Assembly: GCA_001783805.1 (NCBI GenBank)
Contig: MFNS01000001.1
Coordinates: forward strand, 192,649 to 256,648
DNA from: Candidatus Levybacteria bacterium RIFCSPHIGHO2_01_FULL_40_16
Lineage (GTDB): Bacteria; Patescibacteriota; Microgenomatia; Levybacterales; UBA12049
DNA length: 64,000 bases
Reading direction: 5' to 3'
Below the pieces are notes generated by a model. The model was not told the DNA's origin. It saw only the letters and a program-made list of their open reading frames with translations, and ran no database searches. Within the stretch, counting starts at the first letter, position 1. Every line of letters begins with the position of its first letter. Of the stretch, positions 18,441 through 61,209 are shown one piece after another. Made by a program: the position numbers and the translations under genes.

Positions 18441-18453
18441 TTTTGGCCTTTTG

Positions 18454-18527
18454 TACCTCCGACCGGATTCGAACCGGTGATTCTCTGGCTGAAAACCAGA
18501 TGTCCTAGGCCGCTAGACGACGGAGGC
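18454..18527 (-). tRNA. tRNA-Glu (anticodon TTC)
   Basis: GCCTCCG acceptor, D-arm TCGTCTAGCGGCCTAGGACA, loop TTTTCAG, T-loop TTCGAAT; no encoded CCA. Confidence 0.8.
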
Positions 18528-18770
18528 TTGATGTTTAATTAAATTTTCAATTGCAACCCTGCTTTTAAGCGATTTTAAATAAAATTCTCTTTTTCGAGCT
18601 TCTGATAACGTTTCATATTCTTCTTTGTAAATAAGTTTAAACGGTCCCCGATTTTTTGTATACTTTGAACGTCCTTTATTGTGATCTGTAAGCCGGCGAT
18701 TAATGTCAGTCGTACTGCCAATGTAATGTCTACCGTCAATATCACTTCTTAATATATAAGTCGTAAACAT
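18513..18770 (-). CDS. small GIY-YIG nuclease-family protein (start trimmed to MFTTYILRS); 3' end overlaps tRNA-Glu by about 15 nt
   Basis: YILRS...RHYIGSTTDINRRLTDHN...YTKNRGPFKLIY...REFYLKS: GIY-YIG core. Confidence 0.6.
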   Translation of the reverse strand: MFTTYILRSDIDGRHYIGSTTDINRRLTDHNKGRSKYTKNRGPFKLIYKEEYETLSEARKREFYLKSLKSRVAIENLIKHQASVV

Positions 18771-18969
18771 TTTGGTCCTAGGTTCCGATTTAATCGCGAA
18801 TGCTCGATGGATAAATCCATCGGCACCGCTAGCCCCGATGATCGGTGTCATCGGGATCCCGCACGAATGAAATTCGTCGGGAACGATGGCGGCAAGCATT
18901 ATTGATTATACCAACTTTCCTAAAAAAACCCAAGACTCACTTAAGAGCCTCGGGAGAATAAACTTTAAT

Positions 18970-19809: not shown

Positions 19810-19824
19810 TTCTGCTTTGCAGAA
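19810..19824 (+). repeat. 15-nt hairpin TTCTGC-TTT-GCAGAA directly abutting the tRNA-Lys(TTT) 5' end
   Basis: The same stem recurs at 45589-45603, 47199-47213 and 61195-61209; variants at 45900-45914 and 47479-47493. Confidence 0.6.
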
Positions 19825-39851: not shown

Positions 39852-41129
39852 CTAAATAGATTCAGCAGCCAATTTGGTGCGTTCGTATTTGTCTGCCATG
39901 TAGCCGTTGGGAACCGTGGTAAGTTTGTCTGAATATAATAAAAATCCATTGCGGATGGTATGATCGCCAAAACGCTCATTAATAAAATCTACTGTTTGTT
40001 GCAAAGAATTCTGCTTTGCAGAAGAATCAAATAAAGATAGGGGAGTATTGCTTGAGTCCTCTAAACCTGATGCCGTAATTCCAATTTGCCTGACATATTT
40101 AAAATTATTGACATTAACTAAATTGGTTAATAAATCAAACATTTCTTTACCTGTATCAAAATATTTCGTATAAGTTTTTCTTTGATGTAAATTTATGTTT
40201 CCGCCAAAATAATATCCGACAGTCCTGGCTTTTTTATTTAAGCGCCTTAATTTGATGCAAACTTCTTCGCACAATTCATAAATGTTTTGCAGAACAACTT
40301 TTTTATTATATTCGTTTTGGGGCAAACAATAATTCCGTCCCACCGATTTCACTTCCGGAGTCTTAGTGTAGGAACTTAGAACATCTGTGCTTAAGCCTAA
40401 GCCTACTTGATGTAAAAACTCTGCCTCTGCAGAGCCAAATTCCTGAATTAATAATGATAAATTCGCATCCCGTAATTGCAATAGATTGTAAATGCCGATC
40501 TTATTAAGTCTTAATTTTATTCTTTCTCCGATTCCGCAGACATCGGTTAATTTTGCTTTTGCATAAACTGCTCCTAAATTATCCTTGGTAATTTCGAACA
40601 CCCCGTCCGGTTTGTTAATGCTCGATGCCAATTTTGCCAAAAGTTTATTGTGCGAAATGCCAACCGAAACCGTAATATGTTCGCCGATTTTTTCTCTGAT
40701 TTCTTTTTTAAGAAGTTTTATCGTGCTATAAACTCCGCCGAATAAATGATTCGTCAAAGTAATATCCATAAAAACTTCGTCAATTGAGAAAAGTTCGACT
40801 TCCGGAGAAAAGCTTTGACAAATCTTCAAAAACTTCTTTGACACTTCCAGATATTTAACAAAATTAGCCGGAGCAAGATTCAGTGTGGGACAAATTTTCA
40901 GAGCTTCATAAGTTCGGGCTCCTGTTTTAATTCCTAATCTTTTCGCTTCGCGGCTGGAGGCAATAATACAAGTCCTGCCGTTGGTTGCGGTCACTCCGAG
41001 AGGCTTATTGCGCAAAAGGGGATTAAACTGCTGTTCGCAGCTGGCAAAAAAACTGTCAAAATCAATATGTAAAACCCGCCTGCCATCGGCTTTTGCCGAA
41101 GGTAAATGCGGGCAGGTTATTTTTTGCAT
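39852..41129 (-). CDS. dinB: DNA polymerase IV (Y-family)
   Basis: VLHIDFDSFFASCEQ catalytic motif; full UmuC/DinB architecture. Confidence 0.85.
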   Translation of the reverse strand: MQKITCPHLPSAKADGRRVLHIDFDSFFASCEQQFNPLLRNKPLGVTATNGRTCIIASSREAKRLGIKTGARTYEALKICPTLNLAPANFVKYLEVSKKFLKICQSFSPEVELFSIDEVFMDITLTNHLFGGVYSTIKLLKKEIREKIGEHITVSVGISHNKLLAKLASSINKPDGVFEITKDNLGAVYAKAKLTDVCGIGERIKLRLNKIGIYNLLQLRDANLSLLIQEFGSAEAEFLHQVGLGLSTDVLSSYTKTPEVKSVGRNYCLPQNEYNKKVVLQNIYELCEEVCIKLRRLNKKARTVGYYFGGNINLHQRKTYTKYFDTGKEMFDLLTNLVNVNNFKYVRQIGITASGLEDSSNTPLSLFDSSAKQNSLQQTVDFINERFGDHTIRNGFLLYSDKLTTVPNGYMADKYERTKLAAESI

Positions 41130-45510: not shown

Positions 45511-45587
45511 TGGGGTGGGCAACGGGACTCGAACCCGCAACCGTCAGGTCCACAACCTGATGCTCTAGCCATTGAGCTACGCCCACC
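45511..45587 (-). tRNA. tRNA-His (anticodon GTG) with G-1 and encoded CCA
   Basis: G-GTGGGCG...loop TTGTGGA...TTCGAGT...TGCCCAC-C-CCA. Confidence 0.85.
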
Positions 45588-45588
45588 A

Positions 45589-45603
45589 TTCTGCAGAGCA
45601 GAA
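45589..45603. repeat. 15-nt hairpin TTCTGC-AGA-GCAGAA between the GIY-YIG stop and the tRNA-His 5' end
   Basis: Identical to the hairpin at 47199-47213. Confidence 0.6.
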
Positions 45604-45605
45604 TT

Positions 45606-45869
45606 CTATTCTAGCTTATCATAGTTTTCGAAAATGATTTTTCTCAATCTATGTCCAAAACCAGACTTTAAAAATTGTTTTCTTTTATCTGCGCACAATC
45701 TGCAATAAAAGTTTTCGAAATAAACTAAACGCCATGGCCGATTTGTCTTCGTATATCTAGAAAGTCCATCATTATGTTCCTTCAATCTAGATTCAATATC
45801 TTTTATTGTTAATCCTATATATGTCTTGCTTTTGTTGTGTAAACTTTTCAAAAAGTAAACTTTATACAT
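45606..45869 (-). CDS. small GIY-YIG nuclease-family protein
   Basis: MYKVYFLKS...TYIGLTIKDIESRLKEHNDG...WRLVYFE: GIY-YIG core; close paralog of the 47227 gene. Confidence 0.65.
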   Translation of the reverse strand: MYKVYFLKSLHNKSKTYIGLTIKDIESRLKEHNDGLSRYTKTNRPWRLVYFENFYCRLCADKRKQFLKSGFGHRLRKIIFENYDKLE

Positions 45870-45899: not shown

Positions 45900-45914
45900 A
45901 TCTGCTTTGCAGAT
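45900..45914. repeat. hairpin variant ATCTGC-TTT-GCAGAT abutting the tRNA-Arg(TCT) 3' end
   Basis: Same stem family as TTCTGC-NNN-GCAGAA. Confidence 0.5.
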
Positions 45915-47114: not shown

Positions 47115-47197
47115 GCTGCGGTGGTGGAATGGTATACACGGAGGCCTTAAGAGCCTCTATCCGTAAGGGTGTGTGGGTTCGACTCCCTCCCGCAGCA
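47115..47197 (+). tRNA. tRNA-Leu (anticodon TAA), class II with long variable arm
   Basis: GCTGCGG acceptor, loop CTTAAGA, variable arm TATCCGTAAGGGTGTG, T-loop TTCGACT. Confidence 0.8.
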
Positions 47198-47198
47198 C

Positions 47199-47213
47199 TT
47201 CTGCAGAGCAGAA
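47199..47213. repeat. 15-nt hairpin TTCTGC-AGA-GCAGAA abutting the tRNA-Leu(TAA) 3' end
   Basis: Same sequence as 45589-45603. Confidence 0.6.
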
Positions 47214-47226
47214 TCTAAAGGCGTAA

Positions 47227-47502
47227 ATGTATAAAGTTTATTTATTGCATAGCCTAAAAGACACAGGGATGTCTTACGTTGGATTAACAATTAAGGAAAT
47301 AGACAAGAGAGTTGAAGAACATAATAAAGGACTATCACAATATACAAAAACATTTAAGCCGTGGAGATTAGTTTATTACGAACTTTTCTATTGCAGAACA
47401 TGTGCCGAAAAAAGAGAACAATTCTTGAAAAGTGGAGTAGGATATCAATTAAGAAAACATCTGCTTACATTTAAGAATTCTTCTTTGAAGAACGGGGGTT
47501 AG
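47227..47502 (+). CDS. small GIY-YIG nuclease-family protein; 3' end runs through a hairpin variant (TTCTTCTTTGAAGAA) into the split-tRNA locus
   Basis: MYKVYLLHS...YVGLTIKEIDKRVEEHNKG...WRLVYYE. Confidence 0.65.
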   Translation: MYKVYLLHSLKDTGMSYVGLTIKEIDKRVEEHNKGLSQYTKTFKPWRLVYYELFYCRTCAEKREQFLKSGVGYQLRKHLLTFKNSSLKNGG

Positions 47503-47721
47503 CTCAGTTGGCTAGACCTGCCCGCAATTGCCTGGAGCCGATAGCGACTGGCAGGCGGGGCGCGCGGTTTGGCCCGCCTGACTTGAAATGACGGGGTGTA
47601 GTTCATCGGTAGAACGCTCGGTTTGGGACCGAGAAGCAACAGGTCCAATTCCTGTCACCCCGACAAGTCATTTCGGGCAGGGACCGTGAGGTCGGAGGTT
47701 CAAATCCTCTACCCCCGACCA
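47493..47721 (+). ncRNA. split tRNA-like gene: 5' half (acceptor CGGGGGT plus D-arm, 47493-47518) and 3' half (47675-47721: variable region, canonical T-arm GGAGG-TTCAAAT-CCTCT, acceptor ACCCCCG-A-CCA) separated by about 155 nt that contain a GC-rich repeat and a complete tRNA-Pro
   Basis: The outer 5' and 3' acceptor strands are perfectly complementary (7 bp) and a 7-bp CCTGCCC/GGGCAGG helix closes the insert; the 3' half resembles the tRNA-Pro 3' end (…GGTCGGAGGTTCAAATCCTCT…ACCA). Confidence 0.4.
47592..47663 (+). tRNA. tRNA-Pro (anticodon TGG) nested in the split tRNA-like locus; atypical T-loop TCCAATT
   Basis: CGGGGTG/CACCCCG acceptor (C1-G72), loop TTTGGGA; flanked by inverted repeat GAAATGA / TCATTTC. 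Confidence 0.65.
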
Positions 47722-47807
47722 AGTTGAGTTTTTATGTGCTAAAATTGAAGTAGTTTACTTCGGATAATTAAAGCGGGCCTGCCCGCCGAAGTTCCGAAGG
47801 AACGTAG

Positions 47808-47878
47808 GCGGGTGTAGTTTAATGGCAGAACACGACTTTTCCAAAGTCGATACGAGGGTTCGATTCCCTTCACCCGCT
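47808..47878 (+). tRNA. tRNA-Gly (anticodon TCC)
   Basis: GCGGGTG acceptor, loop TTTCCAA, T-loop TTCGATT; preceded by a compound GC-rich hairpin (47757-47803). Confidence 0.85.
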
Positions 47879-47931
47879 CAGACACGAAAGGTATTGACAT
47901 ACTCCGATATATATGTCTTACTAGTATAAAG

Positions 47932-56957: not shown

Positions 56958-56960
56958 GTG

Positions 56961-57031
56961 AGCGGGGTACGAGAATTGAACTCGCTTCTCTACCTTGGCA
57001 AGGTAGCATACTACCGGTGTACTAACCCCGC
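56961..57031 (-). tRNA. tRNA-Gly (anticodon GCC)
   Basis: GCGGGGT acceptor, loop TTGCCAA, T-loop TTCAATT. Confidence 0.85.
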
Positions 57032-57036
57032 TTGTG

Positions 57037-57109
57037 TGCCGAGAGCAGGAATCGAACCCGCATAACCGCTTCTTCAGAGCGGCGCCTTGACCTCGTTGGC
57101 AATCTCGGC
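57037..57109 (-). tRNA. tRNA-Phe (anticodon GAA)
   Basis: GCCGAGA acceptor, loop CTGAAGA, T-loop TTCGATT. Confidence 0.8.
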
Positions 57110-57547
57110 CTATTTAATTTTTTGCAATCTCCTGTATGTCCTGTCCCTATGACAATTAGCGCATACCAAGTCGCATTTTGCTATTTCTTCCTTTATTTTA
57201 TCAAATTTTACTAATTTTCGAAAGGTGAGAAACGAAATGCTTGCCACCTTTTTCTTTCCATCACGATGATCGAAATCCATCACCCATGCAGGGTATTTCT
57301 TCCCGCAGTCAAAGCATGGCTTGTTTTTAATTTTTCCCAAAAACTCCTTACGCTCTACTATGTATTTTAGTTTTCTTTTTTTGGCTAGATATAGCTGTCG
57401 CTCTCTGTTTTGATGATAATAATTTTTTCCGCGGATTTTATAACAATCTTTGCATTTTTCGTAATACTCACCAGCCCTTAAACCGCTTTTTCTTCTATAA
57501 AAATCTTTCAATTCCTTACTCAATCCACACTTCGAACATTTTTTCAT
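57110..57547 (-). CDS. HNH endonuclease; its stop codon directly abuts the tRNA-Phe 5' end
   Basis: Cys pairs (CSKCG, CFDCG) and DFDHRDG...CANCH HNH motif. Confidence 0.7.
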   Translation of the reverse strand: MKKCSKCGLSKELKDFYRRKSGLRAGEYYEKCKDCYKIRGKNYYHQNRERQLYLAKKRKLKYIVERKEFLGKIKNKPCFDCGKKYPAWVMDFDHRDGKKKVASISFLTFRKLVKFDKIKEEIAKCDLVCANCHRDRTYRRLQKIK

Positions 57548-57729
57548 TTATAATTTATAATAAACCGTAGTGAGTCGAAATGCAACTTTTTTCTTCAGAC
57601 GGAGAGGAAATCATTGACCGACTTGGCTACCTCGGCATGTATAAATGCTGTTGCTAGAATAATGTTAACTACCCAATGTCCTATTATTTACTAAAGCATG
57701 TATCTTTTACAAAAATTATTTATACATGC

Positions 57730-57987
57730 CTAGGCATGATCATTCCAGTCTTTTAATCTTTTCCGCAAATAACTTTTGCCCAAACGAGTTTTGAGATATT
57801 TTTCTCTACGATAAGCATCAATTTCGCTTAGGCTGGCTTCGTAGTATATTATATCAAATGGAGCATATGGGCTGGTAGACTTAACCATTTTCTCATTATG
57901 CTCTCTAAATCTTCCTCTTAAATCATTAGTACATCCTGTATACAGAAATTTTCTGGACGTACTTTTTAAAACATAAACGTAAAACAT
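57730..57987 (-). CDS. small GIY-YIG nuclease-family protein, 5 nt downstream of the tRNA-Val locus
   Basis: MFYVYVLKS...LYTGCTNDLRGRFREHN...FDIIYYE. Confidence 0.65.
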   Translation of the reverse strand: MFYVYVLKSTSRKFLYTGCTNDLRGRFREHNEKMVKSTSPYAPFDIIYYEASLSEIDAYRREKYLKTRLGKSYLRKRLKDWNDHA

Positions 57988-57991
57988 CTTG

Positions 57992-58172
57992 TGGACTCTA
58001 GAGGATTTGAACCTCTGACATCTTCGATGTAAACGAAGCGCCCGGCCTGACTGGACTTTGTGGACCCGAGAGGATTCGAACCTCTGACCTTCTCAGTGTA
58101 AATGAGACGCTCTACCAACTGAGCCACGGGTCCATTCAAAGTCGGGCAGGTCTACCGCTGAGCTAAGAGTCC
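57992..58172 (-). ncRNA. split tRNA-Val-like gene: 5' half (acceptor GGACTCT plus D-arm, 58146-58172) and 3' half (57992-58060: anticodon arm with TAC, T-arm AGAGG-TTCAAAT-CCTCT, acceptor AGAGTCC-A), with a complete tRNA-Val nested between
   Basis: The outer acceptor strands pair 7/7 (one G-U); the 5' half matches the Pro-locus 5' half over TAGCTCAG..GGTAGACCTGCCCG; the nested tRNA is flanked by GACTTTG / CAAAGTC. Confidence 0.4.
58061..58133 (-). tRNA. tRNA-Val (anticodon TAC), intact, nested in the split locus
   Basis: GGACCCG acceptor, TGGCTCAGTTGGTAGAGC D-arm, loop TTTACAC, T-loop TTCGAAT. Confidence 0.85.
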
Positions 58173-59835: not shown

Positions 59836-60123
59836 TCATTTATCGATCTTGACTTCGGGATATATCAAGCTAACATTAGTTATTTGTCTTTTGGGATGAT
59901 CCAAATATTCTCTCCAAAATTCTTCTCCGAATATCAGAACTTTTGAGCAAGGACCAACATGAATCGTTTCCTCTGCCATTCCTGTTTTAGCTTTCACAAC
60001 CCCACCCATTCCTTGCGTATAGCCAATAACTTCAAGATTGACTAAGCCACAACCCCTATCTTCTATTTGAAATGTTTTTGAATTCAAATAAAGGCTTCCT
60101 GTTTTCTCAGAAGAAATAGTCAT
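59836..60123 (-). CDS. hypothetical protein
   Basis: 95-aa ORF starting 17 nt after the tRNA-Leu(CAG) outer locus. Confidence 0.3.
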   Translation of the reverse strand: MTISSEKTGSLYLNSKTFQIEDRGCGLVNLEVIGYTQGMGGVVKAKTGMAEETIHVGPCSKVLIFGEEFWREYLDHPKRQITNVSLIYPEVKIDK

Positions 60124-60139
60124 AAGTATAAATTCTTAG

Positions 60140-60373
60140 TGCCCAGGGGGAGATTCCCTGCCCGCCATCAGCTGTCGCCTCAGGCGACTGCAGGCGGGGA
60201 ACTCCCAAGCCCTTGCGGACACAGCGTTCTGAACACTGCATGCCCGCCTGCCAGAGTGCCCCAAGAGGGACTCGAACCCTCACGTCCTTGCGGACACAGC
60301 GTTCTGAACACTGCATGTCTACCATTCCATCATCGGGGCACGGCGGACAGGTCTACCATTTCATCACCTGGGC
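60140..60373 (-). ncRNA. composite tRNA-Leu(CAG) locus: outer 5' half (acceptor GCCCAGG plus D-arm-like GATGAAATGGTAGAC) and outer 3' part (duplicate anticodon and variable arms, GC-rich repeat 60157-60199, acceptor CCTGGGC-A) flanking the intact tRNA
   Basis: The outer acceptor strands pair 7/7; a 32-nt duplicate of the anticodon/variable arm (CCTTGCGGACACAGCGTTCTGAACACTGCATG) is present twice; the 5' half ends GACCTGTCCGCC, like the other split loci. Confidence 0.35.
60257..60339 (-). tRNA. tRNA-Leu (anticodon CAG), class II
   Basis: GCCCCGA/TTGGGGC acceptor, loop TTCAGAA, variable arm TGTCCGCAAGGACGT, T-arm GAGGG-TTCGAGT-CCCTC. Confidence 0.8.
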
Positions 60374-61151: not shown

Positions 61152-61196
61152 CCTAAGGTATGCCTTTCCAAATGCATACGTTAGGATTTTTTTATT
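61152..61196 (+). terminator. rho-independent terminator (12-bp stem CCTAAGGTATGC/GCATACGTTAGG, loop CTTTCCAAAT, T-rich tail)
   Basis: Stem-loop followed by ATTTTTTTATT, downstream of CDS 60441-61019. Confidence 0.6.
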
Positions 61197-61209
61197 CTGC
61201 AAAGCAGAA
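61195..61209. repeat. 15-nt hairpin TTCTGC-AAA-GCAGAA (not adjacent to a tRNA)
   Basis: Same stem as the tRNA-border hairpins. Confidence 0.5.

Follow-up and report, generated by a model that had tools for sequence, protein, structure and literature searches.

Minimal GIY-YIG and HNH nuclease genes beside tRNA genes of a Levybacteria chromosome: candidate selfish cassettes

Why should five small nuclease genes of one bacterial chromosome all lie directly against transfer RNA (tRNA) genes? The question is raised by a stretch of 64,000 nucleotides, here called the window, from contig MFNS01000001.1 (positions 192,649 to 256,648) of Candidatus Levybacteria bacterium RIFCSPHIGHO2_01_FULL_40_16, a member of the Microgenomates in the candidate phyla radiation (CPR). 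A reading made from the letters alone (the sequence-only reading) had noticed four GIY-YIG genes and one HNH gene beside tRNA genes. The analysis favours, at a probability of roughly 55%, the view that the five genes are minimal free-standing selfish nuclease cassettes living in tRNA genes and arrays. This view is based on their linkage to and co-orientation with tRNA genes, on lineages specific to particular tRNAs and on tRNA duplicates around an insert with a single open reading frame (ORF). Tandem amplification, decayed copies, tRNA pseudogenes and differing flanks around a conserved nuclease-tRNA unit point in the same direction.

Linkage of the nuclease genes to tRNA genes

The nuclease ORFs of the window are exactly four GIY-YIG genes of 85-91 amino acids (aa) and one HNH gene. 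A hidden Markov model (HMM) of the four ORFs found no further GIY-YIG copy in the six-frame translation of the window, and an HMM of the HNH family found no ORF of that family besides 57110-57547; these profile searches bear out the earlier remark that no such gene sits elsewhere in the 64 kb. All five genes lie 0-45 nucleotides (nt) from a tRNA gene on the same strand. Within 75 nt of a tRNA gene were 5/5 nuclease genes versus 19 of the 76 ORF-defined genes of the window (hypergeometric P = 6e-4), so the adjacency seen in the letters stands. The positions given there were correct within 1 nt; GIY-YIG 57730-57987 starts 4 nt, not 5, after tRNA-Val. The genes and their tRNA neighbours are the following.

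18453-18527, minus strand: intact tRNA-Glu(TTC) (ARAGORN, Rfam)
18513-18770, minus strand: GIY-YIG ORF, 85 aa (Pfam PF01541, 1.7e-16); its last 15 nt, including the TAG stop codon, are the 5' end of tRNA-Glu
45511-45586, minus strand: tRNA-His(GTG) (ARAGORN/Rfam tRNA scan)
45606-45869, minus strand: GIY-YIG ORF, 87 aa (Pfam), between two co-oriented tRNAs; orthologous arrangement in contig L216
45915-45988, minus strand: tRNA-Arg(TCT), with a promoter-like site directly upstream (46027-45998)
47115-47198, plus strand: tRNA-Leu(TAA), with hairpin TTCTGCAGAGCAGAA directly after it (47199-47213)
47227-47502, plus strand: GIY-YIG ORF, 91 aa (Pfam); its last 10 nt are the 5' end of an interrupted tRNA-Pro
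57036-57109, minus strand: intact tRNA-Phe(GAA), followed by tRNA-Gly(GCC) at 56960-57031
57110-57547, minus strand: ORF of an HNH-type endonuclease, 145 aa, with a stop codon that reaches 57110, next to the tRNA-Phe start at 57109
57730-57987, minus strand: GIY-YIG ORF, 85 aa (Pfam), starting 4 nt after the outer tRNA-Val

GIY-YIG 45606-45869 begins 45 nt after tRNA-Arg(TCT) and ends 19 nt before tRNA-His, while GIY-YIG 47227-47502 begins 28 nt downstream of tRNA-Leu(TAA) and shares 10 nt with the interrupted tRNA-Pro. The probable start of GIY-YIG 18513-18770 is M44 (18770); the longer ORF to 18899 crosses a remnant of tRNA-Glu described below. Promoter-like sites were found only upstream of the leading tRNA, and the tRNA-nuclease gaps measure 4-45 nt.

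The same arrangement recurs far outside this genome. A homolog survey, in which one genome per species was scanned, gave 80 loci from many CPR classes, Bacteroidota, Ignavibacteria/Chlorobi, Marinimicrobia, Calditrichia, Nitrospinota, WOR-1 and Margulisbacteria, from metagenome-assembled genomes labelled Gammaproteobacteria and from one DPANN archaeon. Linkage was counted for the 79 near-full-length ORFs that shared a locus with any tRNA (ARAGORN plus the family HMM). A tRNA lay within 250 nt of 71 of these, against 9.2 on average and at most 20 in 1000 trials of random placement, and 78/79 shared the tRNA's strand. Where the flanks reached 5 kb or more on each side, 33/38 loci had a tRNA within 250 nt. 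The expectation that such genes lie close to tRNA genes in related genomes was thus upheld, and the linkage is general across phyla. No account of small chromosomal GIY-YIG genes linked to tRNA genes was found in the literature searched.

More than 20 different tRNA species serve as partners. When each protein was compared with the most similar protein from another locus, both had the same tRNA partner on the same side in 27/75 cases (2.1 expected); GIY-YIG lineages track particular tRNAs. The 87-aa subfamily, to which the copies at 45.6 and 47.2 kb of the window belong, occurs in three further contexts (L216, L219, L220), always in the order tRNA-Arg - GIY-YIG - tRNA-His or tRNA-Pro. On a Woesebacteria contig (L220:1916-2979; L221) the Arg - GIY-YIG - Pro unit adjoins an AbiEii-family toxin gene and a partner ORF.

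tRNA duplicates, hairpins and nested tRNA genes

The tRNA genes around the nuclease genes bear marks of insertion. At 33/72 loci the far side of the gene exactly repeats 12 nt or more (up to 40 nt) of the adjacent tRNA, compared with 2/355 controls. With one exception, the 25 longest copies pair a downstream tRNA with a 5' fragment upstream of the gene, or an upstream tRNA with a 3' or internal fragment downstream. At L062, L048, L052, L046 and L078 the order is a disrupted older tRNA copy, the GIY-YIG gene and an intact tRNA, or the mirror image. In the culturable Shiella aurantiaca LB-30 (L069) the gene begins 7 nt downstream of tRNA-Ser(GGA), and 18 nt of the tRNA 3' part are repeated beyond it. 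Five tandem GIY-YIG units with a period of 465 nt follow tRNA-Asn in L036:1000-5200, each starting with the final 13 nt of tRNA-Asn and the terminator hairpin. A 1.7-kb segment of L036 that includes tRNA-Asn is also duplicated. About 10% of the GIY-YIG copies at the survey loci are truncated or frameshifted. In the window, the remnants and hairpins beside nuclease and tRNA genes are these.

18775-18893, minus strand: tRNA-Glu remnant (first 26 nt), making up the 119 nt directly before GIY-YIG 18513-18770
19811-19823, no strand: solitary hairpin TCTGCTTTGCAGA without a neighbouring nuclease gene, 1 nt upstream of tRNA-Lys(TTT)
45588-45604, no strand: hairpin ATTCTGCTCTGCAGAAT, between the GIY-YIG stop codon and tRNA-His
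45901-45913, no strand: hairpin TCTGCAAAGCAGA, immediately 3' of tRNA-Arg, as also in L216 and L220
57563-57636, minus strand: decayed tRNA-Phe pseudogene, ortholog of the intact tRNA-Phe after the GIY-YIG gene in L081
57637-57729, minus strand: 93-nt spacer with a 13-bp closing stem GGCATGTATAAAT...ATTTATACATGCC, 79/93 identical in L081

The tRNA-Glu remnant matches in 24/26 nt once the hairpin insertions 18857-18882, 18833-18856 and 18783-18825 are taken out, and two of these three hairpins are of the TCCCG..CGGG(A/G) type. The literature searched describes no hairpin-broken tRNA remnants beside small GIY-YIG genes. The decayed tRNA-Phe can be compared with L081, a related Levybacteria contig whose GIY-YIG protein is 78% identical and which carries the GIY-YIG gene, the 93-nt hairpin spacer and an intact tRNA-Phe. 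The genes that flank this unit differ on both sides between L081 and the window; downstream of its decayed tRNA-Phe the window has the HNH gene and a different, intact tRNA-Phe.

Hairpins are concentrated at the same places. The density of TCCCG(N2-20)CGGGA was 0.376 per kb within 400 nt of GIY-YIG genes and 0.037 elsewhere in the same loci. Such hairpins occur near GIY-YIG in 22/81 loci, including 18857-18882 of the window, and nearly all sit at D-loop, anticodon-loop or T-loop positions of broken tRNA copies. Two GIY-YIG subfamilies of the window bear other hairpins (TCTGC..GCAGA, and a 13-bp AT-rich stem). In two of the three 87-aa contexts, L216 and L220, the hairpin TTCTGCAAAGCAGAA is kept directly 3' of tRNA-Arg. 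The sequence TCTGCNNNGCAGA occurs six times in the window, with 0.03 expected, and 4/6 occurrences abut tRNA ends. Of its hairpin sites 19811-19823, 40010-40022 and 61196-61208, one is beside tRNA-Lys(TTT) and two are inside protein-coding ORFs.

Duplicates, hairpins and pseudogenes are the footprints expected if tRNA genes are insertion or recombination targets, and the interpretation given in the sequence-only reading is partly supported. The tRNA fragments, which had been proposed as possible repair products of nuclease cleavage, do bracket GIY-YIG genes as duplicated segments; for nested tRNAs the same origin is not firmly supported, as these also occur without a nearby GIY-YIG gene. Three tRNA genes of the window (Val, Pro and Leu) are interrupted by GC-rich palindromic elements with the ends CCYGYCYG...CRGGCRGG.

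47493-47718, plus strand: outer tRNA-Pro(TGG) in three pieces (47493-47516, 47560-47572, 47682-47718); removal of the insertions in silico gives an ARAGORN tRNA-Pro(TGG)
47517-47559, plus strand: tRNA-Pro insertion 1
47573-47681, plus strand: tRNA-Pro insertion 2, holding an intact inner tRNA-Pro(TGG) at 47592-47664
47778-47812, plus strand: palindromic CCTGCCCG...GGCGGG element at the 5' edge of tRNA-Gly(TCC) (47808-47879)
57992-58172, minus strand: outer tRNA-Val(TAC) in two pieces (58172-58151, 58041-57992); intact ortholog in L081
58150-58042, minus strand: insertion in tRNA-Val between GGTAGA and GCG, holding an intact inner tRNA-Val(TAC) at 58133-58060
60140-60373, minus strand: outer tRNA-Leu(CAG) in three pieces, no adjacent nuclease gene; absent from the sequence-only reading
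60351-60243, minus strand: tRNA-Leu insertion after GGTAGA, holding an intact inner tRNA-Leu(CAG) at 60339-60256
60198-60157, minus strand: second tRNA-Leu insertion, a 42-nt palindrome in the T loop

The insertion points are the D arm after GGTAGA, the anticodon loop or the T loop. The five insertions are all exact and neither duplicate nor remove target sequence, and their excision in silico restored tRNA-Val(TAC), -Leu(CAG) and -Pro(TGG) as called by ARAGORN; the outer tRNA-Val and tRNA-Leu agree with the uninterrupted orthologs in L081. In each gene one insertion holds a complete tRNA that shares the anticodon of the outer gene and is 74-87% identical to it. The other insertions are 'empty' palindromes of 42-43 nt, which were seen nowhere but at a gene edge or in copies that had already been replaced, and sizes range overall from 20 to 109 nt. 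CCTGCCCG occurs eight times in the window, with 0.8 expected. Nested tRNAs are thus precise insertions of a separate family of palindromic elements, and the literature searched contains no description of nested same-anticodon tRNA genes. An assembly artefact was rejected, as the junctions are identical in four independent assemblies (L085-L088) and the same element recurs in unrelated contigs.

A metagenome scan for GGTAGACCTGYCCGNC gave mostly chance matches in GC-rich coding DNA, and genuine interrupted tRNAs only in three contigs. The nested tRNA is tRNA-Thr (Thr(CGT)) in L090 and L133 and tRNA-Val(CAC) in L167.

L090:402-560: CCTGCCCG-type element with nested tRNA
L133 2248-2560 (reverse): CCTGCCCG-type element with nested tRNA
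L167:4278-4640: CCTGCCCG-type element with nested tRNA

These contigs also bear T-loop palindromes, for example a perfect 20-nt CCTGCCTGCCGGCAGGCAGG, and extra anticodon-arm fragments. No GIY-YIG gene was found within the 9.7-12.2 kb present of L133 and L167, and L090, with only 1.7 kb, is too short to tell. The tie of nested tRNAs to nucleases is therefore only spatial and holds for 2/3 window cases, since L133, L167 and the window tRNA-Leu(CAG) have no GIY-YIG gene nearby; that nested tRNAs are repair products of the window nucleases is only a possibility.

Outer copies have decayed elsewhere, by a deletion in L090, by an acceptor mismatch in L167 and to a mere 5' stub in L081, which favours dead over spliced genes. 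The stub in L081 (1160-1300, minus strand) is a tRNA-Leu(CAG) 5' end, GCGCCCAGGTGATGAAATG, about 150 nt upstream of an intact tRNA-Leu(CAG). Its upstream flank is that of the window's outer tRNA-Leu, and the stub suggests an older replacement event at the same locus. The fold of the whole Val locus is nevertheless that of a tRNA bearing an additional arm, with the inner tRNA at its tip (z = -4.2). No Rfam family besides tRNA, whether intron, riboswitch or other, was found at these loci at the gathering threshold or at E up to 10, and no bulge-helix-bulge geometry was seen by eye at the insertion junctions. Group I introns and archaeal bulge-helix-bulge introns were rejected on these grounds and because the inserts are flush palindromes of 20-109 nt.

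The nuclease proteins and related systems

Pfam PF01541 (GIY-YIG) matched four of four ORFs with E values of 2e-10 to 2e-16, and the domain fills the whole of the 85-91 aa ORFs, which are thus single-domain proteins. A lack of catalytic residues, which had been named as an objection to nuclease action, is not the case: Y5, Y16, G18, R26, H30, N31 and E50 are invariant in all four. The closest solved structures by profile against PDB are UPF0213 1zg2 (1e-10) and 1ywl (2.7e-9), then SLX1 (3e-5), and the score for TIGR01453 (group I intron endonuclease) was far under the cut-off. The family has more than 1600 matches, mostly from CPR. The protein of GIY-YIG 57730-57987 is 100% identical to P0003 of Candidatus Levybacteria bacterium RIFCSPLOWO2_01_FULL_39. 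Several homologs carry the misleading label 'excinuclease ABC subunit C' in their source.

Classical GIY-YIG homing endonucleases (I-TevI, SegA-G, I-BmoI) join an N-terminal GIY-YIG domain to a C-terminal DNA-binding region and measure about 200-270 aa. The window proteins, unlike these, have no C-terminal DNA-binding domain, and 'homing-type' is for them an analogy, not membership. The proposal that tRNA genes or hairpins serve as homing targets accordingly fares in two ways: insertion footprints and hairpin clustering speak for it, but the proteins do not belong to the classical homing endonucleases. They share the minimal domain, free of a C-terminal Asn extension, with the UPF0213/Slx1-like proteins BH0048 (1zg2) and EF2693 (1ywl; PMC1564403), although identity is low and neither a function nor a genomic context of this kind is on record for UPF0213.

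The nearest characterised likeness may be SsnA of Neisseria meningitidis, a 94-aa single-domain GIY-YIG nuclease of the Ssn family (CDD cd10448), which was characterised only in 2025 (PMC11893778). SsnA binds the NTS repeat, with the stem TCCCGCG..CGCGGGA, as single-stranded DNA (ssDNA) and cuts a few nucleotides upstream; its gene is typically flanked by NTS hairpin repeats, and Ssn-type proteins restrict transformation (PMC11893778). The window GIY-YIG proteins resemble Ssn in size and hairpin context: they are about 90 aa long and consist of the GIY-YIG domain alone, the enriched TCCCG...CGGGA hairpins have the core of the Neisseria NTS stem, and the layout of a gene between hairpins is reminiscent of a small mobile element. 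Unlike Ssn as described, the genes here lie in tRNA genes, the hairpins occur within remnants of tRNAs and the gene is surrounded by duplicated tRNA segments; tRNA is nowhere mentioned in that paper (PMC11893778). Further differences are that the window contains no match to the SRM consensus published for Ssn and that two window subfamilies have other hairpins.

SegB of T-even phages is a free-standing GIY-YIG homing endonuclease whose gene lies in a tRNA region (PMC13096335). It cuts tRNA-containing DNA, which leads to recombination-dependent tandem amplification of the segB gene together with tRNA-Tyr (PMC13096335). The tandem array of five units in L036 is comparable to this. SegB itself, a phage protein of about 220 aa, has several domains and a DNA-binding region, whereas the window proteins are cellular and have 85-91 aa. 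Tblastn of one GIY-YIG protein against phage genomes gave no homologs; together with the small yield of four relatives from viral contigs, this marks the family as essentially cellular.

CPR genomes are known for tRNA introns. The published work on introns of Patescibacteria tRNAs deals solely with those of group I (PMC13011429). As in archaeal non-canonical introns and split tRNAs, the window interruptions affect the D arm, anticodon loop and T loop, several per gene; unlike tRNA introns, they are palindromes of 20-109 nt, not group I, with no evident bulge-helix-bulge. We know of no described intron that carries a complete second tRNA of the same anticodon, as some window insertions do.

The HNH ORF had no match in Pfam (including PF01844) or NCBIfam and none that was significant in a PDB sequence search. 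It matched 'HNH endonuclease' families of PHROGs (phrog_2255, 2.9e-32; phrog_3106, 4e-22) and, by tblastn against phages, had about 39-41% full-length identity to HNH endonucleases annotated in phages. Among 23 homologs C78, C81, D93, H94, C129, C132 and H133 are invariant (CxxC...DFDH...CxxCH). Three other CPR genomes (L209, L213, L215) have the same array, Leu-Leu-Val-[HNH]-Phe-Gly, with a homolog that runs into the 5' end of tRNA-Phe; a distant homolog, from Chloroflexota, is placed 14 nt upstream of tRNA-Gly. The tail A-E/T-V-A-K/N-x-V-K-A, which is the translated 5' end of tRNA-Phe, closes about half of the aligned homologs, so the abutment of HNH gene and tRNA-Phe is family-wide. In 157-aa entries of alignment A3 (P0133, P0144, P0152, P0164, P0178 and others) the last approximately 12 residues have this origin, the gene callers having extended the ORF into the tRNA.

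Phages show the same pattern. Salmonella phage Felix O1 has a homolog and two further HNH genes (ORF44, 45, 47) inside a tRNA cluster, one gene overlapping tRNA-Ile by 7 nt and one ending 1 nt before tRNA-Thr, and in Streptomyces phage TunaTartare the homolog gp106 lies between two tRNA-Arg genes. As in the window, the genes of both phages are co-oriented with the flanking tRNAs. The window HNH gene is a chromosomal member of this known phage pattern. It differs from the phage cases in that it lies in a CPR bacterial chromosome and in that the Val-[HNH]-Phe slot is kept across Microgenomates, which suggests long residence or domestication.

Origin and action of the proposed cassettes

If the genes are selfish cassettes, a GIY-YIG cassette would measure about 0.3-0.45 kb, encode the catalytic domain of 85-91 aa alone and insert within or against a tRNA gene in the orientation of that tRNA. 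It would be expressed by read-through from the tRNA promoter and released by tRNA processing; co-orientation, the 4-45 nt gaps and promoter-like sites only before the leading tRNA suggest such read-through. Insertion would be compensated by a duplicated tRNA part or a whole tRNA brought in, one intact tRNA always being left, and the displaced copy would decay and gather hairpin insertions. The nuclease would nick or cut tRNA-gene DNA or the associated hairpins, probably in single-stranded form, and recombinational repair would then copy or amplify the cassette, as with SegB, segB and tRNA-Tyr. The HNH gene would be a phage-type free-standing endonuclease in a conserved slot before tRNA-Phe in the Microgenomates array Leu-Leu-Val-Phe-Gly. 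We infer the cleavage target, the mobility mechanism and the read-through expression in this scheme. A wider proposal, held tentatively as a possibility, is an undescribed two-part class of elements in cellular tRNA genes of several phyla, made up of the GIY-YIG and hairpin cassette of about 0.35 kb and the palindromic mini-elements. Both would insert precisely and bring a partial or complete same-anticodon replacement tRNA instead of splicing, which would produce nested tRNA genes and hairpin-riddled remnants, and the nuclease would recognise tRNA-gene DNA or hairpins in single-stranded form.

Several findings weigh against selfish cassettes. About 5/38 well-flanked GIY-YIG loci have no tRNA within 250 nt. 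The positions of the GIY-YIG - tRNA-Phe unit, the Arg - GIY-YIG - His unit and the HNH slot are kept across CPR genera, which could equally mean old, vertically inherited and possibly domesticated genes. The scan of viral contigs gave only four GIY-YIG relatives (L224-L227), none with a tRNA in the fetched flanks. The published SRM consensus had 0 matches in the window with 0.18 expected, sequence-specific homing of the I-TevI/Seg type cannot be assumed for proteins that have no DNA-binding domain, and the promoter and terminator calls are consensus matches only. In L224, L225 and L227 the GIY-YIG gene lies at most about 1.6 kb from a contig end.

Domestication is the main rival, although it appears unlikely. 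The genes would then be host nucleases, the GIY-YIG proteins acting in trans as Ssn-like ssDNA hairpin nucleases that restrict incoming ssDNA or control recombination at hairpin repeats, for example, and the HNH gene being a fixed host gene; tRNA adjacency would reflect strong promoters or safe intergenic sites. Proteins nearest to UPF0213/Slx1-like single-domain enzymes, with invariant catalytic residues, would suit this role, as would the hairpins with the SsnA core enriched around the genes, the restriction of transformation by such proteins (PMC11893778) and the HNH slot and Arg - GIY-YIG - His unit kept across genera. It leaves unexplained, however, the tRNA segments duplicated on both sides, the tandem arrays and degraded copies, the several paralogs at different tRNAs within 64 kb and the differing flanks of the same GIY-YIG - tRNA unit, and the hairpins are located in tRNA remnants rather than dispersed over the genome. 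A further scheme, for which we see a small chance, would make nucleases and nested tRNAs one system: the GIY-YIG or HNH enzyme would cut the D, anticodon or T region of a resident tRNA gene, and the break would be filled by an exact copy of a palindromic element with a same-anticodon replacement tRNA, much as in intron homing except that a spare gene takes the role of splicing. The five exact insertions in tRNA-Val, -Pro and -Leu, with outer and inner tRNAs sharing an anticodon, would be expected from such a process; 2/3 nested window loci touch a GIY-YIG gene, the element recurs in unrelated L090, L133 and L167, and the 'empty' palindromes are confined to already replaced copies or a gene edge. 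Against it speak the nested tRNA-Leu(CAG) locus, which has no adjacent nuclease gene, and L133 and L167, which have no GIY-YIG gene in the 9.7-12 kb available.

It would be very surprising if the nucleases acted on RNA, processing tRNA transcripts or removing the inserted hairpins from outer tRNAs that function as split or intron-containing genes. Co-orientation would permit co-transcription, the outer cloverleaves are perfect despite one or two insertions, and the fold of the Val locus would fit, but GIY-YIG and HNH enzymes are DNases as far as is known, neither a group I intron or other Rfam family nor a visible bulge-helix-bulge marks the junctions, and outer copies are decaying in L090, L167 and L081. 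Least credible of all is that the nuclease genes are cargo of larger integrase-driven islands with tRNA attachment sites. Partial tRNA duplications around an insert are the classic signature of such sites; the inserts, however, have 0.3-0.45 kb and a single ORF with no recombinase, those in the window, L216, L219 and L220 are enclosed by two tRNAs or by a tRNA and a remnant of it, with no room for an integrase, and the neighbours are housekeeping genes.

Nuclease genes in phage tRNA clusters are already known from SegB and the HNH genes of the Felix O1 type. What is new is a strong rule across phyla for a minimal GIY-YIG family in chromosomal tRNA genes, co-oriented with them, with duplicated tRNA pieces bracketing the gene and hairpin-broken tRNA copies. 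If this rule holds, thousands of small proteins called 'hypothetical' or misnamed 'excinuclease ABC subunit C' would gain a natural target and a life cycle, and tRNA pseudogenes, duplications and odd tRNA calls in CPR and Bacteroidota genomes would be accounted for. It would also predict new ssDNA- or structure-specific nucleases with tRNA-shaped substrates, and nested same-anticodon tRNA genes would offer elements inside essential genes a possible substitute for splicing. In annotation, gene callers extend these ORFs into tRNAs and tRNA finders overlook interrupted copies.

The window as a whole has a GC content of about 37%. Its large ORFs encode housekeeping products (UvrA, UvrB, CTP synthase, BipA and others), and housekeeping genes are also the neighbours of the nuclease cassettes. 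No credible match to a defence system was obtained with PADLOC. ARAGORN and Rfam identified 17 intact tRNAs and one partial tRNA; 17 intact tRNAs per 64 kb is a very high chromosomal density, and most are in small co-oriented groups. Between tRNA-Leu(CAG) and tRNA-Leu(GAG) there is a 95-aa ORF (59836-60123, minus strand) for which Pfam, PHROG and PADLOC gave no match. Since L081 has both tRNA-Leu genes about 60 nt apart with no ORF between them, this ORF is another small insertion into a tRNA array.

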